Notes: generated by a model from the sequence alone, not told the origin. A DNA stretch of 64,000 bases from Eledone cirrhosa (GCA_964016885.1 OZ024741.1:134230001-134294000); one strand, 5' to 3'; positions 5,496-53,239 are shown, counted from the stretch's first letter. Numbers and translations: made by a program.

Positions 5496-5689
5496 ATAAT
5501 AATGATAGTTATTATTTATTTATTAGCATTAAGAGTCCTTACATACATACGTATATACATGCATATACATACATCCGCACATATACACATGCATATACAC
5601 ATACATATATACATACATACATACATACATACATACATACATACATACATACATACATACATACATACATACATACATACATACATACA

Positions 5690-6829: not shown

Positions 6830-7005
6830 TAGTAGAGGGTCGGACGCCATGCTTTCCAGCATAGTTACGTCGCTTTACGATCTGAGTTCAAATCCCGCCG
6901 AGGTTGACTTTGCCTTTCATCCTTACGGGGTCGATAAAATAAAGTACCAGTAATACACTGGCTAATTGCTGGCCTTGTGCCTAAAGTAGAAACAATTATT
7001 ATTAT
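6830..7005 (+). mobile_element. SINE family 1
   Basis: Near-identical to 14525-14694. Confidence 0.8.
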
Positions 7006-13235: not shown

Positions 13236-13274
13236 TTCGGACATGTTTCAGTCTTATTTGAAATCATCAACGAA
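13236..13274 (-). ncRNA. Decayed hammerhead
   Basis: TTCG-TTGATGA-(weak stem II)-GAAAC-AT-GTC^CGAA. Confidence 0.45.
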
Positions 13275-13888
13275 CTCGTATACGTTTCTTGTCCATGTAT
13301 ATAGTGATCCTCTATCTCTAGGTGAAGCAAGCACTGAGGAGTTTAAGTAAAATCAAAACCTGTCCAGAGTGGCTACCAAGCTTACTTAGAATGTCTGAGT
13401 CTTAAACTTTTGTTATTGAAACTATGTTTTCTCCCTCTCCTCACTGCAAAAGCAATTTTAATTGATTGACATTATATTGTCCCCTACACATCTGGGTGCA
13501 CGAATTTGCATTACCCTTTGGGTGGCTGTGTGTGGCACAATTGCATACGGAAAAAAACGAAACACATAGGATGAACAAAAGCGTCCCTCCTCCTTATCAA
13601 CCACCCAAAGGGTAATGCAAATTCATGCACCCAGATGTGTAGGGGACAATATAATGTCAACCAATTAAACTTGCTTTTGCAGTGAGGAGAGGGAGAAAAC
13701 ATAGTTTCAATAACTAAAGTTTAATATATCTGTTTTTAGCAAGAAAGGCAACGACTCAGACATTCTAAGTAAGCTTGGTAGCCACTCTGGACAGGTTTCG
13801 ATTTTACTTAAACTCCTCAGTGCTTGCTTCACCTAGAGATAGAGGATCACTATATACATGGACAATAAACGTATACGAGTTCGTTGAT
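13267..13888. repeat. Fold-back element with arms of about 260 bp
   Basis: 13267-13524 is the reverse complement of 13601-13888, with an insertion of about 30 bp in the right arm. Confidence 0.95.
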
Positions 13889-13997
13889 TATATATATATA
13901 TATATAGTAAAAAATTGAACGGGAACAAAACAGAGAGGCAGTACGAACAAAGGTTTATTAGTTTCACGCTCTTGAGAGTGGGGTGGTGGTGGGGAAC

Positions 13998-14505: not shown

Positions 14506-14694
14506 GGCGGTGGATTGGCAGTATCGGTAGAGGGTCGGACGCCATGCTTTCCAGCATAGTTACGTCCCTTTACCATCTGAGTTCAAATCCCGCCGAGGTT
14601 GACTTTGCCTTTCATCCTTACGGGGTCGATAAAATAAAGTACCAGTAATGCACTGGTAATTGCTGGCCTTGTGCCTAAAGTAGAAACAGTTATT
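14506..14694 (+). mobile_element. tRNA-derived SINE family 1 (representative copy; more than 20 full or partial copies in the window)
   Basis: A-box tggcagtatcggtag, B-box gagttcaaatcc, central ctttcatccttacggggtcgataaaataaagtacc (Nin/Deu-like domain), tail gtagaaacaattatt. Confidence 0.85.
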
Positions 14695-15119
14695 TAGATT
14701 AATTTTGTAGCGGCTCGTTTTCTGCTTCAAACCTTGTCACTTCGGTCACAAAGCCAGGCGCTGCCGCCTGCAGTGCATAGGGGAGACAAATTGCTAAACC
14801 GTTCCTTTTTCACGCCGGTTGACATCGTGACTTCGGGTGTCTTAGGTCCCCGAACTGTCATTTTCCTTCGCAAAATCGGAAAAATGGCAGTCTGCCTAGG
14901 AAAGGAACCCGTGAGGCGGAGTGGATGTTGCAGCGGGTGTCGCTTGCCCTTCTCTGCGACAATGCCTTCACCATTTTGTCCGTAGGACACAGCTGAGAGA
15001 TACCACTCACACTGAAGTGTAGTATCTGTCACCTTCTCCCCTTCCTTTCGTTGTTTAATGTTTTCTTTCATTTTATTTCTTTTCTTTTTATGTATTAGTA
15101 TTATAAAGGTTCTTTATCC

Positions 15120-15515: not shown

Positions 15516-16569
15516 AAAAGAGAATCCTTTATGTGAATAAAAAATGTGAAGAGGGCTGCGGATAGTTAAACTATGATAGTCTGCTTCTGGTTTCCCCTAG
15601 TTATTGTTCTTTTAACTATCTTAGAAACAAACAGAAAACGAAATATAAGGCATATAGAGCTAATGTTGACTTATTTAAACGAGTTCAAATTTGGTCTTAT
15701 TACATTTCAAAATTGTGCTGATCATGTTGATTTTCAGAGGGAAGGGATCTTTTAAACACTATTATATAACATTCCTTGAAAGTGTTGTGGGTTAACAGGG
15801 ATGTTCATGGTTAACGAGAATCTACGAGGTTAACAAACATGTTAAAGGTTAACGAGAATGTTTAACGTTAGCAAATGTATGAGAATGCTCTAATAATAAT
15901 TTCTGATTTAAGTACAAAGCCAACAATTTGGTGGGAGGGTAAGTCAATTACATCGACCTCAGTAGATGACTGGTACTTGATTTTATCGACCCTGGAAGGA
16001 TAAAACTATAAGGCATATAATGCTAATGTTGACTTATTTAAACGACTTCAAATTTGGTCTTATTACGTTTCAAAATTATGCTGATGGTGTTGATTTTCAG
16101 GAGGAAGGGATCTTTTAAACACTATTATATAATATTCCTTGTTTTTATCATTTAAAAAAAAACATGTGTTTATTTAAAATGTTAAAATATCTATATCATC
16201 GCTTCCACATTTATTTTATATTTCCTGTTATCATGTTTCAGTATCATACTTTACACAATCAGGATTTCTTGTTAGATTTTGAAATCAGATATTATTTAAA
16301 ATTAACCTAATTTTATTGAGTGAGTCTGTGTACAAAGACGCTATCAAACTATGTCTCGAAATTCTTGGAGGGTAGCCGAAAGAAGACATATTTGGGTAGT
16401 CAACTCATTGTTTTATAGCTATATTACAGGATTGTCTCCCATGCTTTCCTTAACTAGAATTAATAATTAAGATGATGATTATTTATCATCACTAATTATG
16501 TAAATTTAATCAAGTAAAATTCATTGTCTTACTGTATTAAGTTTATTATATTAACAGTCACTTTACAGT

Positions 16570-16926
16570 TATGGTTTGGTATGGTATGGTATGGTATGGT
16601 ATAGTATAGTATGGAATGGTATGGTATGATGGTGGTATGGTATGGTGTCGTATGGTATGATATGGAATGGCATGAAACGGTATGGTATAGTATAGTATGG
16701 AATGGTATGGTATGGTATGGTGTGGTATTGTATGATATGGAATGGCATTAAATGGTATGGTATAGTATAGTATGGAATGGTATGGTATAGTATAGTATGG
16801 AATGGTATGGTATGATGGTGGTATGGTGTGGTGTGGTATGATATGGAATGGCATGGAATGGTATGGTATGATGTTGGTATGGTGTGGTATGGTATGGTAG
16901 GATATGGAATGGCATGGTATGGTATG
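16570..16926. repeat. (TATGG)n-type pentamer satellite
   Basis: Direct inspection. Confidence 0.95.
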
Positions 16927-19380
16927 TTTCTGTGGATTATTTAAGACTTTGTAGAAGAAATAAATTTAATTTAAAAAAACCTGCAACCACTAACCCATTG
17001 ATGTGATCGATCCCGCCTCTCTCTCCCCTACGCCAGCTTCTATGGCACTGATGAATGTACCATTCTATTCATTTGGTCATATTTATTGGCATGAGGAGGA
17101 AAGGTGAGGAGGATATATTGTGGCTAATTCCTCAAAACTCCTAAATAGATCAAATCCTTTGGAATACTCTCTTTGTTCGTGTTTTCTAACAAGCATCACT
17201 TTTCGTAAGTTCACTTTGAATATAAATCGCAATTATTTCGCTGGTCTGCCTGAGTGTGCAAAGACTGTGGGCAGTGCTGTTTTAGCATTAAATAATTGTT
17301 TCTAATTTCAAAATACGACCAGCAATTTGTGGGGAAGAAGTTGATTATATCAAACCTAGTACTTGACTTGTACTTTCTTTTATCGACCCCGGAAGGATGA
17401 AAGACAAGGTTGACCTCGGTGGGATTTGAACTCAAAACGTACAAAGTCGAAAATAAATACTGCAAAGCATTTTGTCCGATGCACCGCTATATACCAAGTA
17501 AAAGCTTAACTAACACCTTAAATAATGCACACCCTGTTACATTTTGTATTACCGTATTTGCCTGAGTGTAATATTCATTCGAATATAATACGCACTCCTA
17601 AGTATGGGTAATGAAATACGCGAAAAACTATATCTCGTGTACAAAATTCCCTGGCTTTTGTTTAGTATCATTTCAATGACAATTAGAGGCCATGGCATGG
17701 CGGAAAAAGGAGTGTTTGGTTATATTTATTATAAATGCTTAATAGCATACTGAATGAAATCATATTTAAGTCATTACTAACTAAAACTGTTAGATTGAAA
17801 AAGTTCATGCATCCTAAACGCAACAAAAACAAATTCAAACGTGACCTTTCAACTTTACCAGTGTTGAGCGTAAAAGTAGACCTGCTGTACTGTCAGCATT
17901 GCGGAAATCACAGGATCACTTTTTTTTCTAAAAACATTAATTTGATTTTGATAATGAGGATGTATGTAAATAAGTTTATACACAATTTTACAATTCAATT
18001 TATATTCATGCACTCGTGGTCGTGATGTCACAGGAGAACAAAGTATTTATCGTTCACTTGTTACTTTCATACTAGAACACGTGTGTTATTAAAAAATGAA
18101 TGAGTTGTCATTGTTTACCATGGCATCTTAGCGAACATCATATATCAGAGATATTGAAAGCAGTCTTATATAGGAAAATGGGTAATATCGGATGTTGTGA
18201 GCTCAGTATCCAACTCTCGTGCAAAGAATAAAGTCTAAACTTCAATTCATGCCGATGTCCAAGAAGGCATTATTATCGTCATCATTTTTATGTTCGCTTT
18301 CCACGCTGGGATGGGTTGGACAGGTTGTTACGGTCCGATACCTGACGAGTCGGGGTGACCAATCTTGTTGATTACGTTCCAAAGGCAGACAGGAGGAATT
18401 ATGTAAGATTTCCAGAGTTGGGAGAAGAACTGACTGATTGAGTGGAAGAATTACAGAAATGGTTGACATTGGAGTCAGTAGACTGAAATCTCAAAGAAGA
18501 TGGGTGGAACACTTGACAACGTGGGACATATATTGTGTTGGCCCCGATAACTATGTAAACAGTATCTATCTATACTACCAAGTCACATACTTTTTGTCGA
18601 GATAAAAAATAACAGTATTCCTTTGTTTCTTCTCACGCCGAACGAATACATCTTTCGCTTTTAGTGTTTGAAAATATCTTACAACGGGTATCAGTATTGG
18701 CACCAACAAGGGAGGTGGGTTAGCAGAGCGTCGGATAAATGCCATTGCAGTATTTGTTCTGGCTCTTTACATTTCGAGTTCATATATCACCGAGATTAAT
18801 TTGGCCTTTAACTTTCCGGGGTCGATAAAATAAAGTACCAGTCAAGTACTGAGGTTAATTTAATTAACTTCGTCCTTCCCTTAAATTTACAGACCTTCTA
18901 TCTAAAGTAAAAATCAACACTGACACCAACATTTGAGTTACGTCTTAAATACATACATGACAAATGTAATGAACGTTTAGTACATTATTAGAAAGACCAC
19001 CTCACATGGTATTCTTTATTGCGTGCGCGCGCGCGTGTGTGTGTGTGTCAGTGTGTGTTCCGTAGTGTATATATATATATATATCAATGTCTACATATGT
19101 ATTAAAAGGGAAAAACTACAAATTTGACATGCGAATTATACGAACTAGCAGCGACATATGTAATTTAATACAACGTTTATTCTCTACAAAATGGCGGCCA
19201 CCTATGTGAATAAACAAAGACAGAACACAAACCAGCTTCTCAAGTGATAAGCAGTGATGATTGAAACACCACAGCAACTCCACTAATAATAAGACACGTA
19301 AATCTAATTTCGTGACATGGGTACGTTTCGTGACATGAGTACGATATAAGCTCGCACTCATATATGTATATTATATATAC

Positions 19381-19862: not shown

Positions 19863-20025
19863 TTAGTTAGTTAGTTCCACAGCAAATTAGCAAACTATAG
19901 TCGAGAACACGTGTTTTATCCGATAGTTTCTTCAACTCTATACCGAACTCGTTCTTTGGATTGAGTGCTCTACCAGTTTCGGATATAATCTCCCGTTTTT
20001 TTACCACTATATATATATATATATA

Positions 20026-21198
20026 CTTGGGGAGGGTCATATTTGTGTAATAATATTCCCAGAATTAATAACAGAACACACTCACTGTTTGGTTGGTTTT
20101 CGCTTCTGTATCTTTTATATCAGTTAATTTAATTTATTCGGTCCATGCAGTTCTCTGGCTACAACCATAGAGACAGAATCAGAGTATACGAAGGAGTCAT
20201 GGAGAAGTATAAGACCCTCATAGAACTGGACATGAAAGGAATTTGCCCATTATACAGGAGAAAATCATGGAATAGCTTAGATAGGACTAGACATAATATA
20301 GGGAAAGCCACCTCATGGTACGACAACCAGAGATACCAGAGTGTCATGTTTGTGGACGCTACCCCTGGAGGGAAATTAGCTAACCAGTGTAGAAAGGCCC
20401 TGAGAAAGACCCACTTAAAGATTAAGGTGGTAGAAAAGCCAAGAACCACCATAAAATCCCTGATCAGCAAAACCTACCCTTTTAAGAAAACCCACTGTAC
20501 TAATAGGAAATGTATTATATGTAAAGTTAACCCCCGGATAAACTGTAAAACTAGAAACGTAGTCTATAGCATAAGATGTACAGAGGGTACTTGCAGAAAC
20601 ATGACAACAACATACATAGGCGAGACAGCTCGTGGCATAGGTGAAAGGATAGACCAACACTGGGGGGAACTAAAAGGACGAAAACACGGTTCAGTACTAT
20701 ACGAACATGTCAGACAACAACACGACGGTAACATAGACAACATAGAAATTAAAATAATATCTAAACATAGAAATGACCCAGCAGATAGACAAATCAGAGA
20801 GGCCAGCGAAATAGAACTTAGAAGGCCAAAGCTAAACAGAAAAAAATGAATGGAATAACAACAACACCCAAACAAACAATACTGACCTAAGAGAAGTATA
20901 AATAAATAAATAAATAAATACATACACAAGCACAATAACAACAAACACATATAAACACACACTAGTAAACTAAGATAGAATACAATAACCAATACACACC
21001 GTTGGTCAGTCAATAGTAACATTGGGGGCCGAATAAATTAAATTAACTGATATAAAAGATACAGAAGTGAAAACCAACCAAACAGTGAGTGTGTTCTGTT
21101 ATTAATTCTGGCAATATTATTACACAAATATGACCCTCCCCAAGTATAACAATATTTGTTTCGACACACGATTTCATATCAAAAACCTCGCAAAACTA
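20026..21198 (+). mobile_element. 5'-truncated Penelope-like element with an inverted 5' pseudo-LTR, in (TA)n
   Basis: ORF 20145-20849 has a Cys-rich linker and a GIY-YIG endonuclease. 20026-20143 is the reverse complement of about 21026-21147. Nematis/Neptune-like is a tentative clade call. Confidence 0.9.
20145..20849 (+). CDS. PLE C-terminal fragment: linker and GIY-YIG endonuclease (open 234 aa)
   Basis: CTNRKCIIC...NCKTRNVVYSIRC...YIGETARGIGERIDQH...LYEHVRQQH...REASEI...PKLN. Confidence 0.85.
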   Translation: MQFSGYNHRDRIRVYEGVMEKYKTLIELDMKGICPLYRRKSWNSLDRTRHNIGKATSWYDNQRYQSVMFVDATPGGKLANQCRKALRKTHLKIKVVEKPRTTIKSLISKTYPFKKTHCTNRKCIICKVNPRINCKTRNVVYSIRCTEGTCRNMTTTYIGETARGIGERIDQHWGELKGRKHGSVLYEHVRQQHDGNIDNIEIKIISKHRNDPADRQIREASEIELRRPKLNRKK

Positions 21199-21851: not shown

Positions 21852-21895
<44 letters not shown>

Positions 21896-21899
<4 letters not shown>

Positions 21900-22250
21900 A
21901 AAAAAAGATGAAATCGAAAATGCAACTGCAGTCTTATTTTTTTTTAAATATATATATTTATTTGGTTCCTTTACCGGTTTCGCAGTTCTTCTGCTTTTCA
22001 AAAGTAGAGTTGATATAGAGGGTCTGTGGTTTTTCTTACATGTGAGAAAAACCACAGACCCTCCGTCTCAACTCTACTTTTGAAAAGCAGAACAACTGCG
22101 AAACCGGTAAAGGAACCAAATAAATATATATATATTTTTTTAAATAAGACTCCACTTGCATTTTCGATTTCATCTTTTTTTTCTTTATACTTTCACTCGT
22201 GTAGGACACCTCGGTTATTTTTCATTTTGTAAAACAAACCTGACTTTCTA
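21896..22250. mobile_element. Fold-back HHR element, axis 22040/22041
   Basis: Arms of about 145 bp plus a unique tail, in (TA)n. Second copy at 48857-49230. Confidence 0.9.
22077..22112 (+). ncRNA. Minimal hammerhead, U3-A8 variant (mirror 21969-22004 on -; family copy 48983-49018 on -)
   Basis: CTT-TTGAAAA-GCAG-aacaa-CTGC-GAAA-CCGG-TA^AAG. Confidence 0.75.
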
Positions 22251-22436
22251 ATATATATATATATATATATAAAACTTAAGCCCAGATCTCATTTGGGGGG
22301 AGATACAAGCCAAATCAGCTAAAAAAAATCGGATTTAACTTATATAATACCCCAATACCCCAACCATGGTTTAATATATTTTAATACTTTGAGATGTTTA
22401 CGTATTAGAGACTTTATAGAATTATATATATATTGA

Positions 22437-22856: not shown

Positions 22857-23035
22857 TTTGGCAGTATCGGTAGAGAGTCGGACACCATGCTTTGAGTTAC
22901 GTCCCTTTATGATCTGAGTTCAAATCCCGCCGAGGTTAACCTTGCCTTTCATCCTTACGGGGTCGATAAAATAAAGTACCAGTAATGTACTGGGTAATTG
23001 CTGGCCTTGTGCCTAAAAATAGAAACAATTATTTA
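22857..23035 (+). mobile_element. SINE family 1
   Basis: Family 1 consensus. Confidence 0.8.
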
Positions 23036-23327
23036 TTTATGTTCATATATTATATTATTTATGTAAGAATAAGACATATTCTTTCACGTTGCTCCAATTC
23101 TCTTAGCTGGATGTAACGAGTTGTACATGTAATTTAAAGTCACTTTTGTCACACACAATGTCACGTTAAATCTGCCTGACAATTATGTTAAGGATACACG
23201 TGTTTGTGGAATTCTTACGGATTAATTTCATGAACAGACGGTTCCGTTGATCAAAGAATTAAGCACTCAACGTCTGAACCGATGAAGGTATAACACACTT
23301 GAACACAACAGAGAGAGAGAGAGAGAG

Positions 23328-25559: not shown

Positions 25560-26290
25560 TAATGAAAACTACATAAAAAGGGAAAGTGGGTTTTCCAAGA
25601 ACTGTCTTACCTAACATCGCTTTCAATTTACAAGTCTCTACTCGAATAGCAAAAACATTCTTTAGATTTTTCAATAAACACTTTCCTAAACCCCACAAAT
25701 TGTTTAGCATAACATCGTTAGACTCCTTAACAAAAAAAATTTCGTAAACGCCACAAAAACTACAAATTCTTCAGCACAAACTTCATTAGACATCGTACTG
25801 TACCATTCACAATTTTGCACTTTTAATGATACTATCAACATATTTCTTCATTTAAAAACAATAATAAAAATCCGCATTGGAACACCATTGGTTCCAGTTG
25901 TTCTAACAGCAGAACAACCTGATCATGAAATGAACGTGCAAGTGACTGAACGTCCCACAGACACGTGTACCCTTAACGCAGTTCCTAGGGAGATTCAACG
26001 TAACAATGTGCAACAAGGCTGGCCCTTTGAATTACAAGTACAACTCAGGTTTGCCCGCTGCGTGGACTGGCAACGTGAAATAAAGTGTCTTGACACAACT
26101 CAGCGCCCCGAATCGCACTTACGACCTCACGATCATGGGTCAAACTCTCTAACCTTCACAATAGAAAGTGTGGTATTTCACTATTGACATACATCTGGGA
26201 AACTAAAAAATGACCAACACACAATTTGACATCATATTGAAAATATAAATCATTAAACCATACAAACCGAGTCAGTTAGATACATTAGAA
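25560..26290 (+). mobile_element. Highly decayed PLE fragment interrupted by a SINE
   Basis: TRIAKTFFRFFNKHFPKPHKL and YIWE...KPYKP resemble the RT-endonuclease region of elements like the one at 45-48 kb. Confidence 0.5.
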
Positions 26291-26304: not shown

Positions 26305-26748
26305 GAATTGGCAGAAACGGTAGGGCGTCGGACAACATGCTTTGCTGCATAGAGTTATGGCCCTTTGCCTTCTAAGTTCAAATCCCGCCAAGGCTGGCTT
26401 TGCCGTTCATCCTTACGGGGTCGATAAAATAAAACACCAGTAATGCACTGGGGTCGATTTAATCGCCCCCCCCCCCTCCAAAAAAAATTGCTGGCCTTGT
26501 GCTTATACTAGAAATCCTTATTAAATAGAAAGTTACATACAAAAGATTATTATTAATAGCGGTGGACTGGCAGTATCGGTAGAGGGTCGGACGCCATGCT
26601 TTCCAGCATAGTTACGTCCCTTTACGATCTGCGTTCAAATGCCGCCGAGGTTGACTTTGCCTTTCATCCTTACGGGGTCGATAAAATGAAGTACCAGTAG
26701 TGCACTGGGTAATTGCTGACCTTGTGCCTAAAGTAGAAACAATTATTA
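26305..26748 (+). mobile_element. Two tandem SINE family 1 copies
   Basis: 26305-26520 and 26558-26748 both match the consensus. Confidence 0.8.
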
Positions 26749-27200
26749 ATAGCGTAAATAGAAATTCAGATCTCAACTCTTTATGCAAGCATCTTACGTA
26801 CAGTTCCCTGCGATATTTTAAGCCTATAGACATTTCCAACGGTTAGAACCTCTTTTCGTGGACTCCCCTATCAAAAACAACCCTGTCTAAATGTTTATAT
26901 TCCTTGTCATATATTGTTTTGATTTGCATATGTACTTGAGCAACTGTATGAACCTGGGTATATTGGTATATAGCGTATTTACTTATATGGTTGTGAGGAG
27001 GTACGTAGCTTAGTGATCGTCAGTTCGATTCCTGCCTACACCAGGCAAGACACATTCTTTCATGTTGCTTCTGCGACCTGGAGACATATTTTTCTCTACT
27101 GAATTAACAATATCGAAAGGTCTAGTAACAGAACAAAATGATCTGTTGCTGAGGCCGCCTTTCAGAGCTGTCCATGTCTAACGTGTACATATCCCTACAA

Positions 27201-36776: not shown

Positions 36777-39688
36777 ATACCATATTATCCGCTACACATC
36801 TTTAAATTTGAATTCTGGCTCTTCAATTAGGTATAAGCAGGTACCACAGTTTATTCTTCCGCATTTTGTAACAGTTAGGCTGGAGATTTTTTATGGGGTT
36901 TTCTTCCAGTAATTATATGTTTTAGTGTTTTGGTCTGTCTTTTACTTTTAATAATTTGTTGTGTTCCAAGAATTTTGTTCATTTTTTCATCTTCGTATAG
37001 AATTTGGAGGTTTTTGCTGAGATGGTCAAACATTTCGACATTTCTGAGGTTGACAGTTGACACATATGGTCAGGCATTGTTCCTGGTTTTGTTTTGTTTT
37101 TTGTTTTTTTTCCTTAGCTATGTCTTCCCCCTTATATTCCATTTGTGATTAGACCAAATGGAAAGTGTATTTTTCAGTTCAGCCAGTCTTTGGTCACGTT
37201 TAATCGGGTCCGATATTATTGTGCAAATTATTTTAGTTAGGTTAAAAGAAATGTTCAGTTTAGGATGTTTTGGATGGCTCAATATAAATAGGTGTTGTTT
37301 GGAGTACGTAAGTTTATAGAAAATGTCCGTTTCTGTTCGTCTGTCAATTTTTATGATTGATATATCCAAAAGGATTAGTTCATTGGGGTTAAACTCCATT
37401 GTGAATTGAATGTTGCTGTTTAGATTATTCTTGGATTTTGCGATGTATCAAGGTTTTCCCGCCGTAAGATAAAGCATTCATCCAGATATATTTTCCAGTT
37501 GTTTTCTTTTTATCTTATTTAAATTTTTCTTTTTTTTTGTGCTTGTGTCTCCAAATAGTAGTAGTGGTTGATTGTAAATCTTTTTCTCAGGAAATCCCAT
37601 GACTAAATTGACTTATGTGTGTGGGGGGGGGGGGGCGGGAGCTACCTTTGTGTCTATTGCAATTCCTGATATAAGTCGGTTCGCAGGTCTATAGAACATA
37701 AAATAGTTGTTTTGTAATATGAATCTGAGTCTATCAATGATGAAGAATTTTCAGTGTGTATCAGTAATTCGGATTGATATGTGTCTAGCCAATATTCAAT
37801 TGCAGTTATTCCAGTCATGGGAGTTGTTTGTGTATAAGTAGACAATGACGAAGGAAACAAAAAGTGAATTCATTTTCTGTTTGTTTGTTGTTGTTGTTTT
37901 TTTGCAGATGATTCAGCTTGTCTAGATCATCTCATATGTAACACTGCACATGTTTTAAGTAGGGCTTTAGAGGGATGTCCTGAATTTACTTAGTCTGTGT
38001 GTTTCACATTCAGAGTCTGCTATAATTGGTCTAATCTTTAAATCGTCTGGAGGTAGTAACTAGATGTATTTGAGTTTTGATTAAAATAAATTATTTCGTC
38101 CCCAGGAGATAAAAACATAATAGAGAAAATACGTGGGTCTGAAAAATCATCTGATTCAGTTTTTTGTTTATATAAAAAATCAATGCTCATTCCGTCTACA
38201 CCATATTTAAACTGGATGTTTAGGGTTTCACAATTTTTGGAGTCAAAATTTTATTTGATCAATCGGATCAATAGGTACAGATAATTCACTGATAGTTAAA
38301 GAGGAAGAGTAACATTTTATTTCTAAAACATTAGTTTTATAACGAAAATATTTTTCCTATTGTTATAAAGAGTCTTGTATTTAAAGACAGTTAAATTAGC
38401 TCTTAAGATTGATCTGAAGGCTTCTACATTAGAATATTTCAAATGAAGGTTTTCAGATAAAGAAGAATTAAAAAGTTTAGACTTACTACGAAGTGTCAAG
38501 CAAGTATTTGTTTATTTGTTGGTTTGTTTTTGAGGAATTCTCAAAAGTTCACTCCTACCTCTTTTATTATGTGGCAAGCTCTCAGAATTACCCGTGTTGA
38601 CACAAAGAATTTCAAGATTTTTTTCCAACCAATTATCTTCATTTTTATATAAACTTTGCCTGTGTTATCTTACTTTGTTGCAATTTTGTTTCCAGAGTAC
38701 TTAAAGATTTTTTAATCTCTGTCTATTTTTTGTCAAATTATATCAATTAAGAACCCTGCTGAATCATCATTGCGAGCTATTTTGGTTTTTCTCAAGAAGT
38801 TAAATAAATCAATATATTTCATTTCTTAAAAATGTTTATTTAATACAAAACCAACAGAACAGAAGAAATGTTATAACATTATATAAGTACTGAATATTGT
38901 GTAAATTTTATTGTCGATACTGGCATATCGCGTTATATGTTATTATTGAAACAATCATGAAACTATTATTTTGAATTTTTTAATGAGATGACATTGTATT
39001 TAGACACTATGCTTGAGTAATTTGTTAATTTTTGAACTTGTGAAAGATTTATAGGATCTGAATAAAATTACACCAATTTTAACTGGTACATACCAGTTAA
39101 ACTTGAATCTACAAAATTTTAGGGCCATTGAAAAGGTGACAAAAAGTGGCAAAAACTATGTTACTATAGATCTTTATCTATCATATTTGTTCAAAATTAT
39201 ATTTTGCTCATTTGGAACTACTCGAAATAGCAACATTTTATGTAGCGATTAACATAAAGATCGGTAATTTTCATTAAGCCAAACACATTTTTCAACTCCA
39301 AAGTAGTTAAAGTTATTTTATTTTACAGCATAACAACAATATATATATATATATAAGTGGAAGCTTAGTAAAATCGAAGCTTTGACTGTGGGAAAGCAAA
39401 GTCGACCTACAATAGCAATGAGTTAGCAAAGCACTCAATAAGTCTTAGAGTAATAACATACGTTTAAATAGCTACTATATATATATATATATAGGAAAGT
39501 GTTTAACCCCGACAGCAGAGCGCAAGCCGTTTCGACGGCTATTTCTGAACTCAGTCCAGAAATAGCCATCGAAACCGCTTGAGCTCTGCCGTCGGGGTTA
39601 AACATTTTCCTATTACCCACTCTACTACCCTAAGTATTGAGTACTCTGGTCCATCTGGTTCCTTACCACACCTCCTTCGTTATATACA

Positions 39689-39724
<36 letters not shown>

Positions 39725-40013
39725 CAATAAAGTATGTCCATAGAATCATTTGATAAAATATATACACCATCTCCTCTCCCAACCAGCATAATCAACCACA
39801 CACAAAACCAATTAAACCAGGCTATAAGATTAAAAGGCACCTATGAAGAAATAATAGATAAATAAACGACAGCCATCTATTCGCGATCAACAGCTATATT
39901 TACCCACCATTTCAATAGCACGTGGAAATCGATTAAATATATCGTCAACCATACACAATTAGGTATAAAATCAAAGTTAGAAGAAAAAATGTATATAAAC
40001 ATACCAAGATTAC

Positions 40014-40094
40014 GTTTCTACCCCTGGAGTTTCATTCGCTTTTGGAAATATCCGATCAAGGATAAATTCACGAGCTTCGAAATCATCAGGAAAC
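40014..40094 (-). ncRNA. Type I hammerhead, long stem II
   Basis: GTTTC-CTGATGA-tTTCG...TATCC/GGATA...CGAAt-GAAAC-TCCAGGG-GTA^GAAAC. Confidence 0.7.
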
Positions 40095-41166
40095 AAACTC
40101 ACTTGGACGAAGATTTTTCTTAAATGATCCCCGCCAGAAACGAATTCAAAATGGCTAAGAACTGTGACGTGGCAGTGGTCAAGTCAGAAAGAATATGATT
40201 GGTGCCTTACGGAGAGTGGGCTGGTTGCTAGAAAGTGCAGCCTAATATTGCCTAAATTGCATTTCAACCATATGGGAGATTATCAAATATAAAGATTTAC
40301 ATATACACAAACTAGACAAAGTCATAGATATATATATATATATATTTTAACCTGTTAGTTCTTTCGTTACTTTCGTATTGTGTGGTTGGGTTTTGCCTAC
40401 CGCAATGTTCAATTTGTCAAGCTATTTAAACGTATGTTATTACTCTAAGGACCTACCCTTATTGAGTGCTTTGCTAACTCATTCCTATTGTAGGTCGACT
40501 TTGCTTGCCCACAGCCAAAGCTTCGATTTTACTAAGCTTCCACTTGTATTATTTTCTCCTAGATTTAATAATTAACTAATTAATTTAATTAGACAATTCT
40601 GTTGATTGGTTAATTATTTGTGTTTGTTTAATAACATCTGGTTGAGAGCTTTTATTCGAAATGTTAGCGGAAATTATAATATTTCCTTTGTTAACACTTT
40701 GAACCTACCCGCCAAAAACCGGGGGTTTCTTCCCTTGTTGGAAATAACACGTGACAACTAAGTGTTCGCTGGCTGCATTCTTAGCGGCCGCATTTAGCTT
40801 GTCCACTCCGATTTATGGCAGAACAGAATCCCTGTTGATGAAATGAATCCTCTGTTCGATCATGGAATACCACGAGCGTGCGTGTTACGTAAGTTGGATA
40901 ACTGATATCGGATTCATAGAAACACTTTAAACGTATATCGTTTGATTTGTCCAGGTCTATCTTTTTAACCTGTTAGTTCTTTCGTTACTTTGGTATTGTG
41001 TGGTTGGGTTTTGCCTACTGCAATGTTCAATTTGTCAAGCAAGCTATTTAAACGTATGTTATTACTCTAAGGACCTACCTTTATTGAGTGCTTTGCTAAC
41101 TCATTCCTATTGTAGGTCGACTTTGCTTGCCCACAGCCAAAGCTTCGATTTTACTAAGCTTCCACT

Positions 41167-41219
<53 letters not shown>

Positions 41220-42321: not shown

Positions 42322-42659
42322 AGTATGTTTTGAAAAAAAAATATATATATATATATATAGTAAGTATGTTTTGAAAATATATATATATATATATATATTT
42401 CCAGGGAGTGTAATGTGATATTACTGTAGGTTCACCCAGGTGAGCACTCGATGTTTAGGTTCACGTCAGTGGCGAGGTGTAGAGCTAGACAGAGTGTAAT
42501 ATAATAATATAACAAGGATGATTTGTTAAGCCTTCATTACGTTTATTGATTGGTGACGCGCGTTTCGCTATTGATCAGCTCAAGGTTCGGTCTGTATCGA
42601 TATGGCCTAACTCTGGAATCAAAAGCTCGTCGGACCTCTGCTGTTGTAATGACACCAGA

Positions 42660-42744
42660 GGTCCGACGAGCTTTTGATTCCAGAATTGAGCCAGATCGAT
42701 ACAGATCGAACTTTTAGCTGATCAATAGCGAAACGCGCGTCACC
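42660..42744 (+). ncRNA. Type I hammerhead, CCGACGA core, long stem II (mirror copy 42552-42636 on -)
   Basis: GGT-CCGACGA-GCTTTTGAT...ATCAATAGC-GAAAC-GCGC-GTC^ACC. Confidence 0.75.
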
Positions 42745-42879
42745 AATCAATAAACGCAATGAAGGCTTAACAAATCGTCCTTGTTATATTATACATATAT
42801 ATATATATCATCATCATCATCATCACCGTTTAACATCCATTTTACCATATATATATGTGTGTGCGTAAATACATATTTA

Positions 42880-44807: not shown

Positions 44808-44862
44808 TATTTTGTCTGATGAGGACGTACTGTTGTACATCCGAAATATGTATAATAAAATG
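44808..44862 (+). ncRNA. Type I hammerhead ribozyme (canonical core)
   Basis: Stem I TATTTTGT/ATAAAATG, CTGATGA, stem II GGACGTAC-tgtt-GTACATCC, GAAA, self-complementary TATGTA, AUA cleavage after 44854. Confidence 0.85.
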
Positions 44863-45000: not shown

Positions 45001-45070
<70 letters not shown>

Positions 45071-45075
<5 letters not shown>

Positions 45076-47969
45076 GTTATGCAAGAAATGCTTAGGATTA
45101 TCCTGAATGCAGTAATGGTTAATTACTACACTAGATAGAGTTGACGTACGGTGAGGGGTTACTCAATGAGTAATGGATCAGTTTCTGATCCTTCTGTATT
45201 CCGGAGTGTAGATAAAGAATGAATAATAACAGGTAGACATCATAAAAAGGTCATTTATTCCGAGTGCTTACAAATGTTTCAAAAGAGGTTATACAGCCTA
45301 GTCATGCTATGTGCAAATTGGTAATTATTTGCAGAAACTCAATTTTCAAATGCTGCTTCTACCGTTTCCTCAGAGCAGATTGGTTAAAATGTGAATACCC
45401 TTGTATTTCTTAAAGGAAGTTATTGGAGAAGATAGAGTAGAAAAGGAAGAGAAAGAGAAGGGGAGGGAGAGAGAGATATGTAGGGGTTGGAGAAATGGGA
45501 GAGAGTGGTTTGAAGAACACAGATATCTTAATCAAAATGTTGTGATAGGGGTTTTATTATACTGCTTACTCTCAAAGTGACAACCTTAGGCGGTGTGTTG
45601 ATATAGTTAAGGTTGGAATTATTTATTGCCACAGAGAGCAGGTTCATGTGGAGAGGGGGGAGGTAGACCGAGGGCGAGAGAGAGGGGAAGAGAGGAAGAA
45701 AGAGAGATAGAGAGGGGACAGACGAAAGCTACGAGATGAGGGTACATGGAGTCCATAGTTGTAGTCTACAAATCGCACTTAAGTATCCATTTATAATGAT
45801 AAGCAGGGTATTGTCTTGTAGTGTGGGGTGGGGGATATAGTTTGGAAGTAGTTAGCGAGAAAGCGATGTTATAGTCTCGGGTTCGAATGTTAAGTTATTT
45901 TATAGTGAGAGAATTTAGCCTTCAGTTTGTGGTTGCAGTATAGTGATCGTTCGATTCTGTCATTTAGTAATTTATTTTTGGATTTTAAGATGTAAAAGAG
46001 TTCAAGGTTGCATAATCTGCAGTACTTCAATCCACTCCGATATGCACTAGCACTGGAAAGTTTATCCCATTTCAAGGTAAACCTCCGGTTGCATTCTCGG
46101 AGTTGCCGGGTCTTATTGTCGAGCGTAGTCACAAGACGGTGATTAGGATGTTTAATCGAGAATTGATGACGATACCAGCAAGATTTAAAGGAGGTAGTGG
46201 TAGACCCGATGTAATACCATTTCTGATCGTTCGATTCGACAGTACATTGATAAACAATGTTGGACTCTAGGCATTTATTCTTCAATGGGCATCTTTCGGG
46301 TAGGTGGCAGTTGCAGTTTTTGTTGTGGGTAGAGGTATACCATGGATAGGTTGGGATAACAGTTCAGGTGGGTTGTGTAGTACCCGTCTCCCATTTGGTG
46401 GTTGGGAGGCCGATACTACGTTATGCTCATCTTAAGTTTTTTTATGTATGCAGTGGAGTATGATAGCTTTTATGGTGCAGTGGAGTATGATAGCTTAATA
46501 GTCTTAGAGTTTAGAATCTTACTATATTTATGGGAACTAGTGAAATGCTTGTTAATTAACTTAAAGAATGAAAGAGATAGTTTTGTACTAATCGAAACAT
46601 TAAAAATGGGATTATACCAGATATACGTGATTTATTTGGTGATGATTTTCTATTATTAGTATGTCTGGTGGTACTGCGTGTGTGCGCTTGTATTTCTGTA
46701 CCCCGGTTATATATTCTTTGATTTCGTGTAGAGCTATGTGTGTTATGGAGATTCTTATCAATGTATTCTATTTTATCCCGGTGGTCTGCATTCCTTAATG
46801 CATTATTATAGTATTCAGCATGTTCACTGAAAATCTCAGAGTTAGACGATAGGCGAGAGATTCTGTGAGAAATAACCGATTTGATCATGGAAAGTGGGTG
46901 GTTTGAGTTAAAATTGATATAGGTAAGGTTCTCATTTATCTTGTGGAAGGGTCGTATCATTCCGGTATTCAAATTAAGAGTTACGTCTAGAAAATTTACC
47001 ACTTTAAGATTGTATTCGTACGTTATTTTTAGACCCAGTTCACTAAAGGATTTTCTAATGTTTTTCCGTAGCCTTTCAAGATTTTGGTTATTTAAGTTAT
47101 TAACTAATAAAAGCGCGTCATCTCTATATATTCCCCCCTCTAGATTACTAAATTTTCCATGTAGTATGTGGGCTATGTAAATTCCCACGAGATCAGTGAC
47201 CTCGCTGAGTCGTTGGAGCCCATGGTGATGTCGAAGTTTGTGGGTCTGTCCCTACGTTCCCAGTAGCAGTTATCAAACTTGATAATAGTTTTTCTAGCCT
47301 CTAGAATAATATTAATTTCGTCCTCCGTTAGGTCGGAATTGACTTTGGCAAACGATAGGGCCTTACGTAAAGTACTGGGTGAGATTGAACCGTAGTATTC
47401 GTCTATGTCGAATTGTATAAACTTAGACTTATTCTTGTTCTTAACGTTATTAAACCAGCGAATTGCTTCGCTAGTGTTGCCCCATAATTTAATTTCTATT
47501 TTCTTTTTTAATTGAGTTATTACTCTGTCAAGTATATGTTTGCTAGTTTTTCCTATGTCTGATTTAGAAGGGCATATAAGTCTAATCTTAGGGTTAGAGT
47601 CAAAATTTACCTTATGGTCCTTCAGGTTAAAGGTGGGGGTTGCGGGTATAATCAGCTCGGTTCTATCGTCTATCTTGAGATTCTTCACTACTTTGTATGC
47701 TTCGTTGTTAATGTTCGTTAGTGTAGTGTCACTTGTTTTTCTATATTTCTTATGTAGTTCTTTGCGTATGAAGCTGTTGTATGTATCGATATCCATGGTA
47801 TACACGTTAGAGGTCTTATCAGCTTTCACAAAATCCCATTGGTATTTTGCAGTCTTCGGAGTAGTGTTTTCATGTTGTTCTGCAGCTCATTACTTCTATG
47901 TTTGGTAAATTTGATTAAGATATCTGTATTCTTCAAACCACTCTCTTCCATTTCTCCAACCCCTACATA

Positions 47970-48006
<37 letters not shown>

Positions 48007-48262
48007 ATCTCCCCTTCTTTTTCTCTTCCTTTTCTACTCTATCTTCCCCAATAACTTCCTTTAAGAAATACAAGAGTATTTACATTTTAACCATTCTGCT
48101 CTGAGGAAACGGTAGAAGAAGCATTTGAAAATTGAATTTCTGCAAATAATTACCAATTTGCACATAGCGTGACTTGACTGTATAACCACTGTTGAAACAT
48201 TTGTAAGCACTCGGAATAAATTACCTTTTTATGATGTCTACTTGTTATTATTCATTCTTTAT
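45071..48262 (-). mobile_element. Penelope-like element (RT plus C-terminal GIY-YIG, Hydra-clade-like) with an inverted pseudo-LTR
   Basis: Frameshifted ORFs 47173-47829 (KADKT, FIQFDIDEYY, MGS), 46556-47188 (YRDD, FLDVT) and 45890-46285 (IVY..YIG, C-terminal CRLC...CNH). About 45212-45536 is repeated inverted at about 47910-48262. (TA)n on both sides. Confidence 0.92.
48097..48209 (+). ncRNA. Hammerhead in the PLE pseudo-LTR with a stem II region of about 85 nt (second copy 45265-45377 on -)
   Basis: TGCT-CTGAGGA-AACGGT...ACTGTT-GAAAC-ATTT-GTA^AGCA, then AATAAA. Confidence 0.7.
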
Positions 48263-48416
48263 ATATATATATATATATATAAATGTAATCTGAGTTTTTC
48301 GAATATTAATAATAACATTCGATTCGTTTGCAATTATGCAAACAAGCCTCATTTTTAAGGCCATGTCAGAAGAATGAACCCTTCATTCTTGCTCTTGTGT
48401 TGGCATGTAAACATAA

Positions 48417-48810: not shown

Positions 48811-48862
<52 letters not shown>

Positions 48863-49318
48863 GTGAGGTTTTTTTTACAAAATGAAAAAAAATGAGGTGT
48901 CCTACACGAGTGAAAGTATAAGGAAAAAAGATGAAATCGAAAATGCAACTGGAGTCTTTTTTTTAATATATTTATTTGGTTCCTTTACCGGTTTCGCAGT
49001 TCTTGTGCTTTTCAAAAGTAGAATTGAGATGGAGGGTTTGTGGTTTTTCTCACATCTGGTTGGTGTTCGAATGTTACTTGTTTTATATGGAAAAAAAGTG
49101 GCTCGAAATGCTAGGTTTTTAGAGAAGTAAATCCATCTCAATCCTACTTTTGAAAAGCACAAGAACAAATAAATTTTTTTTTTTTTTAAAAGACTCCAGT
49201 TGCATGTTCGATTTCATCTTTTTTCCTTTTATATATATATATGTTATACACATATTCTATATGTCTATTCTACACATACATTCCATATTTATATACTATA
49301 CATGCCTTCTTTTATTAG

Positions 49319-49410: not shown

Positions 49411-49974
49411 GTAAGTTTGACAAATTAAAATGATTCAACTTTGATGAAAATTTGAGGAAGTTTAATAGGATTACAATTAAATACTAAGGGGTTAAATTAA
49501 GTATGAATTCTTTGGATGAAGGTAAATTGAGAACTTGGGACTTTTATACTTCCTTCTTTCTCCCATGTGTATCTAGTGGGGGTGATGAAGATGCTAGTGG
49601 TGGGGGAGGAGTAGCAGTGGTGGTGCTGTTGCTGCTGCCCTGGCTGCTGCAGGTGGTGGTGGTGCTGGCTAGATGGAAACTGTAGGAGCCCATTGCCCGG
49701 ACTGTACCTGTTTAATTCAAAGGTCCAAACGGTGTCGCACTGATTCACTTTGAGAATTACATAAAGGGTACTCGTATCTGTGGAATACACAACTACTTAC
49801 GATGATAGAATGGGATTTGTGGGACATTTGGCTGCTGTTTCTGACAGGTCAAACATTGGTATTAATGGTGTGGATAGTTGATGTTACTTCTGTTATTTGC
49901 AAAGATCGCATTTAGCTTATAAAACAATTTTCATCTTTATCCTACGTTTAACATGACCAATTTCAGTACCCATG

Positions 49975-50240
49975 ATATACCACTGGTATACCATTGGTAT
50001 ACCACTAATAAACCACTGATATATAACAGGTATACCAGTAATATACCACTGATATACCTCTAATATACTATTAGTATACCACTGGTATATCTCTAATATA
50101 CCATTTTTATACCACTGATATACCACTGATATATCACTAGAATACCTTAAATATACCTGTAATATACCACTGATATACCATTGATGTAGCACTAGTATAC
50201 CACAGATATACCATTAATATACCACTGATATACCACCAAT
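49975..50240. repeat. Imperfect 11-bp tandem repeat
   Basis: Repeated ataccactgat-like units inside the intron between exons A and B. Confidence 0.85.
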
Positions 50241-50283
50241 AAATCATAATTATAAACATGTTTTTTTTTCATTATTATTTCAG

Positions 50284-50947: not shown

Positions 50948-51135
50948 ATCTAAAGAAACTAGGCCAGGGAGGTTTGGGCCGCTGACAAGTTTCTTGTCCT
51001 TGTTGTTGGCTCTCCTTAACGACGTATCAGGTGATGCTTCCGAGAGTGCTTGGTTATTCCAGTGTTTGGTTATCCTTGCTATCACCTGCAGCAATGCTGC
51101 AAGTATGTTGATTTACTCGTTGCGTTCCATATTTG
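50945..51135 (-). mobile_element. Probable RTE 3' end fragment
   Basis: Short GC-richer piece ending ..PGLVSLDAH followed by a (CA)n tail. Confidence 0.4.
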
Positions 51136-51179
51136 GCATGCTTTCTATAGCTTCCTAATAACAACCGCCTTTCAGGGTG

Positions 51180-52960
51180 GACTAAGTGCATGTTATCATG
51201 GTACCAGTACTATTACTTTACAACGTGCATTGGGTACATTTTATTGTGGTACCAGTACTATTACTTTACGTGTGTTGGGTACATTTTATTGTGGTACCAC
51301 TACTATTACTTTACAACGTGCATTGGGTACATTTTATTGTGGTACCACTACTATTACTTTACGTGTGTTGGGTACATTTTATTGTGGTACCAGTACTATT
51401 ACTTTACAACGTGCATTGGGTACATTTTATTGTGGTACCACTACTATTACTTTACGTGTGTTGGGTACATTTTATTGTGGTACCAGTACTATTACTTTAC
51501 AACGTGTATTGGGTACATTTTATCATGGTACAAGTACTAACACTTTATAACGTGTATTGGGTACATTTTATCATGGTACAAGTACTATTACTTTATAACG
51601 TGTATTGGGTACATTTTATCATGGTACAAGTACTAACACTTTATAATGTGTATTGGGTACATTTAATCATGGTACAAGTACTAACACTTTATAACGTGTA
51701 TTGGGTACATTTAATCATGGTACAAGTACTAACACTTTATAATGTGTATTGGGTACATTTTATCATGGTACAAGTACTAACACTTTATAATGTGTATTGG
51801 GTACATTTTATCATGGTACAAGTACTATTACTTTATAACGTGTATTGGGTACATTTTATCATGGTACAAGTACTATTACTTTATAACGTGTATTGGGTAC
51901 ATTTTATCATGGTACAAGTACTATTACTTTATAACGTGTATTGGGTACATTTTATCATGGTACAAGTACTAACACTTTATAACGTGTATTGGGTACATTT
52001 TATCATGGTACAAGTACTATTACTTTATAACGTGTATTGGATACATTTAATCATGGTACAAGTACTAACACTTTATAACGTGTATTGGGTACATTTTATC
52101 ATGGTACAAGTACTATTACTTTATAACGTGTATTGGGTACATTTTATCATGGTACAAGTACTAACACTTTATAACGTGTATTGGATACATTTTATCATGG
52201 TACAAGTACTATTACTTTATAACGTGTATTGGATACATTTAATCATGGTACAAGTACTAACACTTTATAACGTGTATTGGGTACATTTTATCATGGTACA
52301 AGTACTAACACTTTATAACGTGTATTGGGTACATTTAATCATGGTACAAGTACTAACACTTTATAATGTGTATTGGGTACATTTTATCATGGTACAAGTA
52401 CTAACACTTTATAATGTGTATTGGGTACATTTTATCATGGTACAAGTACTATTACTTTATAACGTGTATTGGGTACATTTTATCATGGTACAAGTACTAT
52501 TACTTTATAACGTGTATTGGGTACATTTTATCATGGTACAAGTACTATTACTTTATAACGTGTATTGGGTACATTTTATCATGGTACAAGTACTAACACT
52601 TTATAACGTGTATTGGATACATTTTATCATGGTACAAGTACTAACACTTTATAACGTGTATTGGGTACATTTTATCATGGTACAAGTACTAACACTTTAT
52701 AACGTGTATTGGATACATTTTATCATGGTACAAGTACTAACACTTTATAACGTGTATTGGGTACATTTAATCATGGTACAAGTACTAACACTTTATAATG
52801 TGTATTGGGTACATTTTATCATGGTACAAGTACTAACACTTTATAACGTGTATTGGGTACATTTAATCATGGTACAAGTACTAACACTTTATAACGTGTA
52901 TTGGGTATATTTTATCATGGTACAAGTACTAACACTTTACAATTTGTAGTGGGTACATTT
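51180..52960. repeat. 48-bp minisatellite, about 37 units
   Basis: Unit ttataacgtgtattgggtacattttatcatggtacaagtactaacact. The first units alternate 48 and 45 bp. Confidence 0.97.
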
Positions 52961-53239
52961 TCTCGGTGCAGCAGCACTTATCATATTGAAACATATTGTC
53001 TTAGAGAGTATGAGATCTCCTGACTGCACTACAACTAAATGAGATGAACGCTAGATCTAATTCATAAGTCTTTCCATGGCAGACTCCTATGGTCTCACTA
53101 AGGGATATGACTCCCACCTTGTTTGGGACAAAACACTAAATATAATTTTGGATTATAAATTTGTTTTACAAGATTCTTGATGGGAAATCGTATATTGAAA
53201 CAGATATTGTTATACTTTGACAACATGAATCTTCCTAAC

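Follow-up and report, generated by a model that had tools for sequence, protein, structure and literature searches.

A dead Hydra-clade Penelope-like element of Eledone cirrhosa from a family whose type I hammerhead motif has a 74-nt loop II

Introduction

Within 64,000 nt of Eledone cirrhosa DNA (GCA_964016885.1 OZ024741.1:134230001-134294000; hereafter the window), a repeat-rich stretch with a GC content mostly of 30-40% and many microsatellites, a longer element with remnants of reverse transcriptase (RT) and endonuclease shares its layout with short fold-back elements. The first-pass annotation read this element as a candidate autonomous partner of the short ones and ascribed to its hammerhead a very long stem II, a form that length-limited searches would miss. 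Here we ask what the element is, whether its oversized hammerhead belongs to a retrotransposon family or to a single copy, and how the short elements relate to it.

Results

The element is a 5'-truncated, frameshifted Penelope-like element (PLE) on the minus strand, running from ~47909 to 45071, with the RT followed by a GIY-YIG endonuclease (Table 1). A search with the N-terminal half of the RT returned four longer homologs among 1448 candidates (36-42% identity, E down to 1e-41), and the best of these, used as a query in turn, returned 15,487 representatives at E<=0.001 (150 of them listed); the best homologs were 47% identical over 361 aa. A profile of eight full-length homologs matches four frames in order (47832-47203, 47206-46718, 46655-46473 and 46333-45899; iE 1e-15 to 1e-64), and in an alignment the element is colinear from end to end with 18 Hydra-type proteins. 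These colinear matches describe a single RT followed C-terminally by a GIY-YIG endonuclease, the frames being broken in the analysed copy. Pfam gave a weak GIY-YIG match (E 0.05) and otherwise chance matches on the window, and no solved structure matched the Hydra profile.

Craig 2021 (PMC8557442) delimits the Hydra clade by the motifs RWK and DKT, a linker of the form CxCx5C, a CxxC and a CxH flanking conserved E and N, the absence of CCHH, and insertion into (TA)n. Five of the six protein and target motifs are present, among them the DKG-to-DKT change (ADKT at 47823-47812), the linker (CNCHLPERC at 46315-46289), the CxxC and CxH around E and N (CRLC at 46021-46010, CNH at 45937-45929) and the (TA)n flanks; the RWK region, present in the aligned full-length homologs, was lost by 5' truncation. 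Of 42 homologs of at least 600 aa, DK[TS] occurs in 34 and DKG in one, and 35 show the C/H pattern at the C terminus. In its alignment with Hydra-type proteins the endonuclease has no extra conserved C/H. On the basis of motifs and colinearity, assignment to the Hydra clade is supported, so that the initial call of RT and GIY-YIG remnants of a PLE, suggested to be of this clade, stands. The endonuclease piece had no locus in the metagenome contigs searched, nor had the Hydra alignment in the viral contigs searched.

Inspection of the sequence shows that (TA)n arrays bound the element on either side, and a family contig from one sequencing run (X2) has a loose end at 45093 that continues into TA. 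A 353-bp inverted duplicate of the element's 3' end occupies 47910-48262; the inverted repeat (45209-45536 versus 47910-48265) aligns at 87% with gaps; matching columns number 308 and mismatches 17, and of the 29 columns with gaps nearly all fall within a TC tract. Read along the minus strand, the inverted copy (48262-47910) meets the rest of the element at a junction at ~47910; ORF remnants then continue to the stop at 45890, and 820 nt of 3' sequence lead to the terminus at 45071. The terminal repeat is the inverted 3' duplicate, and a direct upstream pLTR is absent. The sense terminal copy is longer than the inverted one by 138 nt (45208-45071), and this tail matches the N-terminal Hydra profile in no frame (best E 0.21) and is therefore not an ORF start. 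The layout first described, with TA flanks, an inverted copy and a hammerhead followed by AATAAA (here at 48215), is thus confirmed. The element's 3' UTR had no blastn match among 90 Hydra-type loci.

Table 1. Coordinates of the element and its flanks in the window
Feature	Position	Strand	Basis or remark
(TA)n array, target site at element 3' end	45005..45070		sequence
138-nt 3'-terminal extension, sense copy only, part of family end	45071..45208	-	family contigs and reads; inversion joints 45112, 45140, 45143
AATAAA directly 3' of hammerhead, sense copy	45254..45259	-	sequence; many hammerheads of Hydra type are followed by comparable A-rich words
Type I hammerhead, ORF-sense copy	45265..45377	-	stem I TGCT/AGCA; stem II broken by private changes at 45283, 45286
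Boxes of sense hammerhead	CTGAGGA 45373-45367; 86-nt spacer 45366-45281; GAAAC 45280-45276; GUA 45271-45269	-	
TGCAAAT/ATTTGCA hairpin, 7 bp, inside loop II	45312..45333	-	predicted folds; family breakpoints cluster here
3' untranslated region, pyrimidine-rich (TC) tracts	45378..45889	-	sequence
CxCx5C linker (CNCHLPERC), GIY-YIG endonuclease (YYIG 46216-46205), CxxC..E..N..CxH tail, stop	45890..46333	-	Hydra-type profile, iE 3e-31
Post-thumb WxNP segment, separate frame	46473..46655	-	profile, iE 1e-15
RT core, C-terminal half (YRDD 47128-47117, FLDV, SNHP)	46718..47206	-	profile, iE 3e-47
RT N-terminal half (DKT 47820-47812, KDHK, FDID, MGS)	47203..47832	-	profile, iE 1e-64
Last ORF remnant before 5' truncation/inversion junction (~47910)	47833..47909	-	alignment, frame breaks
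Inverted, 5'-truncated duplicate of 3' end, 353 bp	47910..48262	+	self-alignment
Type I hammerhead of inverted copy, antisense to ORF, three stems intact	48097..48209	+	descriptor scan
Boxes of inverted-copy hammerhead	CTGAGGA 48101; AACGGT 48108/ACTGTT 48188; GAAAC 48194; GUA 48203-48205	+	
AATAAA, inverted copy	48215..48220	+	sequence
(TA)n array, outer end of inverted copy	48263..48281		sequence

The analysed copy has neither an intact ORF nor an intact 5' end: it is truncated at ~47910, lacks ~85-110 N-terminal residues (the RWK motif included), carries at least four frame breaks and stops, and reads Cys in place of an endonuclease Arg, which we take to be the catalytic Arg. To describe its family we used four sequencing runs (X1, X2, X3 and X5), which derive from at most two samples and two studies, and did not take summed contig depth as copy number. 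The family is multi-copy: contigs numbered 1,570-1,777 per run, and X5 contributed 3,927 reads. Many family sequences are free of three of the frame breaks (47831, 47202 and 46333), and in X1 and X3 most contigs of the family lack the first of these. The family majority letters also bring back conserved residues that the analysed copy has lost, namely the endonuclease Arg, Trp in TxL..W and Pro in KHFP; when 29 differences were tested one at a time, 13 were silent and 16 were not. Since the majority letters restore conserved residues and many relatives lack the breaks, the family had a normal Hydra protein. The genomic copy at 47909-45071 is therefore a dead member of a multi-copy Hydra-clade retrotransposon family, and its description as autonomous does not survive. 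The family also produces fold-back copies of its own, as seven opposite-strand joints were found among the 15 joints listed of 17, each represented by one contig in one or two runs. Three of these joints (45313, 45315 and 45316) fall on the TGCAAAT hairpin, and read ends occur at 45319.

It is very improbable that the element is, or was, the autonomous partner that mobilises the window's short fold-back hammerhead elements. Such a role would fit the common layout (TA flanks, inverted copy, hammerhead, AATAAA), trans-mobilisation is compatible with the sequence, and retrozymes are reported in Li 2026 (bioRxiv 10.64898/2026.07.22.740005) to derive from PLE pLTRs, but no nucleotide similarity links it to its neighbours. 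Blastn of the element against the window gave its own inverted copy as the sole match, and local alignment of its 3' end with 13 chosen short fold-backs or hammerhead neighbours placed none of them (0/13) above shuffles (scores of 16-25 versus shuffle means of 18-24; positive control, 508). Further arguments against this role are the truncated and frameshifted state of the analysed copy, the occurrence elsewhere in the window of another PLE remnant, distinct from this one and bounded by inverted ends of its own (20015-21155), and the short fold-backs that the element's family makes of itself. The shared layout is the ordinary PLE insertion pattern, inverted 5'-truncated copies being already known for PLEs (Craig 2021, PMC8557442), and Cervera 2014 notes opposite-strand hammerhead pairs 100-700 bp apart. 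The proposed link between the short elements and PLE enzymes accordingly holds for PLEs as a class and fails for the element at 47909-45071; most simply read, the short elements are insertions of their respective PLE families, each of them doubly truncated.

A scan of the whole window for type I hammerheads returned four sites, 44816(+), 61060(-), 48101(+) and 45373(-), of which the last two are the terminal copies of the element, with a CTGAGGA-to-GAAA distance of 86 nt in each. Both have the CUGANGA, GAAA and UH core in type I order, and scans of the element placed its only full hammerhead match as expected, before the AATAAA and near the 3' end. The hammerhead cited in the first-pass annotation (48101) lies on the plus strand, antisense to the ORF, whereas the ORF-sense copy is that at 45377-45265 on the minus strand; a hammerhead is thus indeed present, at both ends of the PLE. 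Likewise, the spacer of about 85 nt is real (86 by our measure in both copies) and contains the internal hairpin (TGCAAAT/ATTTGCA words at 48141/48156 in the inverted copy), but stem II is a 6-bp helix closing a 74-nt hairpin-bearing insert and not a long helix. Stems I, II and III abut the core with 4, 6 and 2-3 bp, respectively, in the inverted copy and the family majority; in the sense copy stem II is broken, its 3' strand reading TCTTTT versus ACTGTT in the inverted copy, and this copy fails our strict descriptor (spacer up to 100 nt; stem II >=6, stem III >=3 and stem I >=4 bp).

The stems are short and a GAAA occurs inside the insert, 19 nt after the core, and we therefore considered whether short words had come together by chance or whether the nearer GAAA forms a minimal hammerhead. 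Both readings are extremely improbable, as the descriptor was matched in 0/150 shuffles of the window and 0/5000 shuffles of the inverted copy, and the nearer GAAA yields a stem II of only 2 bp, leaves stem I without a partner and is lost in a divergent subfamily end described below. The 3' half of the motif, GAAAC-ATTT-GTA, fits the Hydra-type consensus GAAACAnnnTTGTA (30 loci), and stem II opens with A-U, A-U and C-G; the G that is near-invariant in Hydra-type motifs is absent from it, as is their xTG..CAy pattern. A 20-base stretch of this 3' half had no match in the genome and viral contigs searched. Judged by sequence, the motif is very probably homologous to the hammerheads of PLEs.

We then turned to the family for evidence on stem pairing. 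The changes 45283 A>C and 45286 A>T, which restore ACTGTT, account for 99-100% of contig depth in X1-X3 and for 358/389 and 381/389 reads, respectively, in X5. The AACGGT/ACTGTT pairing, whose absence had been named as grounds for rejecting the motif, is thus the family majority state in X1-X3 and X5, with AACGGU/ACUGUU restored at 92-100%. Because family reads restore this pairing, the oversized spacer, with its 74-nt loop II, is supported as a trait of the family as a whole. The core boxes are unchanged among the 40 family differences listed of 391, and a further change, 45380 T>A (18/18 X5 reads), agrees with the inverted copy and permits an extra ATTC/GAAT helix in stem I; a 4-nt bulge is possible in this extended stem I of the family majority. 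A divergent subfamily end in X3 (three contigs, compared by eye) differs at 9/30 letters with the spacing kept and is without the internal decoy GAAA. Its stem II 5' strand reads TACAGT, which turns the G-U pair into A-U and the base into U-U, a stem II base common among Hydra hammerheads; the partner strand is unlinked. Linked two-sided covariation was absent from the 40 of 391 differences listed, which leaves, as a hint, this one unlinked subfamily end with pair-compatible changes. Depth falls sharply across the 5' half of the motif (45353-45446), indicating that many relatives diverge or end there.

PLE introns are retained in DNA copies. If the insert were a spliceosomal intron, splicing would give a normal-sized hammerhead and cleavage would depend on splicing. 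There is precedent in that PLE pLTRs can hold introns, with an intron end abutting the hammerhead in Drosophila virilis (Cervera 2014), and the sense copy has a GT after AACG and an AG 65 nt later, the removal of which would leave AACGG/CTGTT around an 11-nt loop. Nevertheless we regard this as very improbable: the donor is weak and a pyrimidine tract is absent, the AG is missing from the inverted copy, and the GT is accounted for by stem II pairing. No family contig skips the stretch among the 15 joints listed of 17, an argument that is itself weak for contigs and DNA reads.

To place the spacer among those of related elements, we gathered 90 loci by means of the Hydra alignment, 79 from metagenomes (the best 79 of 477) and 11 from genomes, and searched them with a descriptor that allowed spacers of up to about 250 nt. 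A 3' hammerhead was found in 47/90 loci, with spacers of 10-31 nt (median 18); one match was kept per locus, one match inside an ORF (in locus L088) and four second matches having been dropped, and several loci are near-identical families. Inspection by eye of 27 of the other 43 loci revealed seven short cores missed by the descriptor, the rest being cut or decayed, and no convincing long form; the 16 loci outside this inspection were 15 with 106 nt or less after the match, plus L088. By our own count, the 25 Hydra families in Craig 2021 File S2 have 12-26 nt between the core boxes. The 86 nt of the element therefore departs from the canonical short loop II on both counts and is nearly three times the largest spacer among the 47 Hydra-type loci.

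A covariance model from 17 Hydra-type hammerheads left both terminal copies out of its 14 matches at E<=5, bearing out the prediction that length-limited models miss this motif. An Rfam scan of the window returned no hammerhead family among 108 matches, and because it missed even the canonical motif at 44816, its silence is uninformative on length. The covariance model did find the motif at 61060 and one with a 49-nt spacer at 40011-40097(-) (27.9 bits), and further candidates lie at 57332(-), with a 38-nt spacer, and, weaker, at 21421/21482, with 55 nt. Other candidates of the window thus have enlarged spacers of 31, 38, 49 and 55 nt, a graded series in unrelated families that hints at a genome-wide trend. 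Separately, three stems could not all be fitted at the CTGAGGA words in positions 13334 and 13820 or at the CTGAAGA words in positions 468 and 628, and these sites were discarded as hammerheads.

Finally, we folded the motif in silico. Relative to the minimum energy, the active fold is higher by 4.7 kcal/mol in the majority form, 6.1 in the inverted copy and 11.1 in the sense copy; the canonical motif at 44816 has a gap of 4.4 kcal/mol of its own. The predicted probability of stem I is 0.01 in the majority form versus 0.91 for motif 44816. Four majority letters put stem II into the minimum-energy fold, with a pair probability of 0.39 versus 0.00, and in this predicted fold stem II closes a junction of three hairpins. 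With folding z-scores of +1.06 and +0.51, neither terminal copy folds better than shuffles. We put the odds that the family form shows measurable self-cleavage at slightly short of even.

The folding raises the alternative that the hammerhead is a relic: an insertion into loop II would have disabled it in the family ancestor, amplification would have continued since insertion needs no cleavage, and conservation would reflect common descent only. The disfavoured active fold, the rarely formed stem I and the atypical base of stem II all point this way, and there are precedents, as Poseidon hammerhead mutants insert normally in vitro (Frangieh 2024) and Naiads amplify without canonical hammerheads (Craig 2021, PMC8557442). 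Set against this are the core letters and three stems that are intact in the family majority, the changes compatible with pairing in a subfamily that differs at 7/23 of the neighbouring letters (by eye), and the other spacers of 31, 38, 49 and 55 nt in the window, which argue for tolerance over a single accident. On balance we consider a relic unlikely, though it retains appreciable weight.

Discussion

The best overall explanation, to which we assign a probability of about 0.7, is that of a dead Hydra-clade PLE copy from a family whose type I hammerhead has a 74-nt loop II throughout, inserted by priming at two sites, with the motif acting as the hammerhead of the pLTR. An intact member of the family would have supplied the GIY-YIG endonuclease that nicked the two strands at a (TA)n site, and each of these nicks would have primed reverse transcription near the RNA's 3' end; one cDNA may have run for ~2.8 kb, stopping inside the ORF, and the other, which began 138 nt further in, for ~350 nt, before the two were joined head to head. 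Two short cDNAs made by the identical process could give rise to short fold-back elements. In support of such a route, AT-rich DNA is nicked by PLE proteins, which prime reverse transcription at the cut, and the protein of Poseidon cleaves both strands and extends each, with two internal start sites explaining one-sided tails (Frangieh 2024).

At the RNA level, the motif would serve as the family's pLTR hammerhead, with a stem II that closes a multi-hairpin junction and a stem III of 2-3 bp. Cleavage at the GUA would probably be weak, or occur only as a dimer or with the help of protein, and may trim tandem or read-through transcripts; the insert might lower the cleavage rate, and its hairpin might promote truncation. 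The uncut RNA is the likely insertion template, because inserted copies extend ~200 nt past the cleavage site. The Poseidon hammerhead is protein-assisted and its template is the uncut RNA (Frangieh 2024), and metazoan PLE hammerheads with a weak stem III cleave poorly and mainly as dimers (Cervera 2014).

A broader proposal is that, in this animal lineage, loop II has grown into a structured domain in several unrelated PLE families, with spacers of 31, 38, 49, 55 and 86 nt in the window, and that these ribozymes are active. By switching the fold or by binding protein, the insert would keep insertion templates from being cleaved, and its hairpin would be a hot spot at which 5' truncation and fold-back occur. 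Motifs of this kind would escape standard descriptors, and some calls of PLE clades as having "no hammerhead" or a "half-core" would be false negatives. Taken whole, this is quite unlikely, and we offer it as speculation. Should the family motif cleave, type I hammerheads would be seen to span a wider range of natural shapes, surveys of PLE hammerheads would be undercounts, and deletion or swapping of the insert would provide a natural handle on what these hammerheads do. Should it not, the family would be a further case of PLEs spreading with a disabled ribozyme. No report of such a long-loop-II PLE hammerhead emerged from the literature searched, a search that did not extend to the variant surveys of Lunse 2017 and Arkhipova 2017.

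The element type, its inverted structure, the TA targeting and the pLTR hammerhead are already published. The element resembles Hydra-clade members such as Hydra-1_Obim and Penelope-13_HM (Craig 2021, PMC8557442) in DKT, CxCx5C, CxxC/CxH, (TA)n and a near-3' hammerhead, and an inverted 5'-truncated copy is noted for Penelope-13_HM too. It differs from the published families of the clade in its 86 nt between the core boxes (versus 12-26 nt in 25 families), a 3' UTR of ~820 nt and a full length that would be >3 kb (versus generally <3 kb). Because the hammerhead of Hydra-1_Obim is different and short, the element belongs to another family. The PLE hammerheads of Cervera 2014 share with it the CUGANGA/GAAA/UH core, short stems III and I and the place in the terminal repeat, but have a helix II of 4-8 bp with a small loop.

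Outside the PLEs, the discontinuous Clec2 hammerheads (Martick 2008, as reviewed in PMC2950038) are active despite large inserts that defeat standard searches; the search described there, however, allowed inserts in loops 1 or 3 of motifs in mammalian mRNAs, whereas in the element the insert occupies loop 2 in a retroelement. Non-LTR retrozymes (Cervera 2020, PMC7229834; Li 2026) likewise have a type I hammerhead and a proposed PLE origin, but they are tandem, non-coding repeats with a hammerhead in each, whereas the element codes for an RT and an endonuclease and is inverted. The closest precedents for an enlarged spacer are PLE-X1_sMoe and PLE-X1_sTam, which have the type I order and spacers of ~54 and ~48 nt (Craig 2021 File S2), and the Naiad "HHR_half_core", with 35-50 nt (Craig 2021). 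These, by contrast, belong to plant endonuclease-minus elements of the Chlamys group or are without fitted stems, whereas in the element three stems fit around a spacer of 86 nt and the insert folds, by prediction, as several hairpins. What is new is the size and structure of loop II, with a spacer that exceeds the 48-54-nt outliers of Craig 2021.

Breakpoints and depth among family copies of the main element

When copies of its family were compared with the main element, the dead Hydra-clade PLE copy at 45071-48262, 155 of the 215 molecules from X5 (a sequencing run compared as reads) ceased to fit at 45319, in the loop of the hairpin at 45312-45333 within hammerhead loop II, and continued as mixed sequence; many stops also fell at 45253-45255. 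The cause could be that copies are truncated at this hairpin, that subfamilies diverge there, or that the library introduced an artefact. In each of the four runs, a subfamily with another tail parted from the alignment at position 45180, and the summed contig depth of the family over 45165-45258 was about 10 times that of the ORF.

Other hammerhead candidates, fold-backs and repeats

The top match of the Hydra-type covariance model in the window was the minus-strand hammerhead candidate at 40011-40097 (27.9 bits, E 6e-5), whose sequence is unrelated to that of the main element. The cleanest among the further type I candidates was the one at 44816, with a stem I of 12 bp when one mismatch is allowed; those at 61060 and 57332 and the 21421/21482 pair are housed in TA-flanked fold-backs. 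A full hammerhead fit was absent from the fold-back elements listed as such in the table. Among fold-back elements, 21893-22271 is akin to 48836-49231, and the segment 40345-40547 recurs in direct orientation at 40963-41169, resembling a partial tandem. The SINE-like family is present in many copies with 70-97% identity, and the unit of the 48-bp minisatellite could be a coding repeat.

Features of the window besides the main element's own ends and hammerheads
Feature	Position	Strand	Details
PLE remnant, distinct from main element	20015-21155	+	open frame, CIICK..CK linker, YIGET GIY-YIG
Piece of another Hydra-type ORF	25598-25753	+	small; WxNP region, iE about 1e-5
Direct repeat	46449-46496		21 bp exact, period 27; in main element's ORF where frame is broken
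Hydra-type hammerhead candidate	40011-40097	-	spacer 49 nt, U-U opening, stems 5/4/3 bp
Type I hammerhead candidate	44816	+	spacer 20 nt
Type I hammerhead candidate	48455	-	spacer 13 nt
Type I hammerhead candidate	61060	-	spacer 31 nt; decayed mate at 61186 (+)
Type I hammerhead candidate	57332	-	spacer 38 nt
Type I hammerhead candidate pair	21421 / 21482	- / +	spacer 55 nt
Fold-back elements	13263-13891, 21893-22189, 42504-42792, 39491-39613, 414-668, 48917-49231		most adjoin TA arrays
48-bp minisatellite	51093-53000		about 32 copies, 92-97% alike
11-bp repeat	49927-50278
5-bp repeat	16550-16950
SINE-like dispersed family	5310-5500, 6832-7004, 14507-14696, 22858-23038, 26559-26751 and others		about 180-200 bp

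Other PLE sequences

Hydra-type PLE ORFs were also encountered on 11 prokaryote genome contigs (L080-L090), where they most likely represent DNA of the host animal inside prokaryote bins. In the window, the PLE remnant at 20015-21155 carries an inverted 3' duplicate (20015-20144 versus 21026-21155), and this remnant may be Neptune-like.
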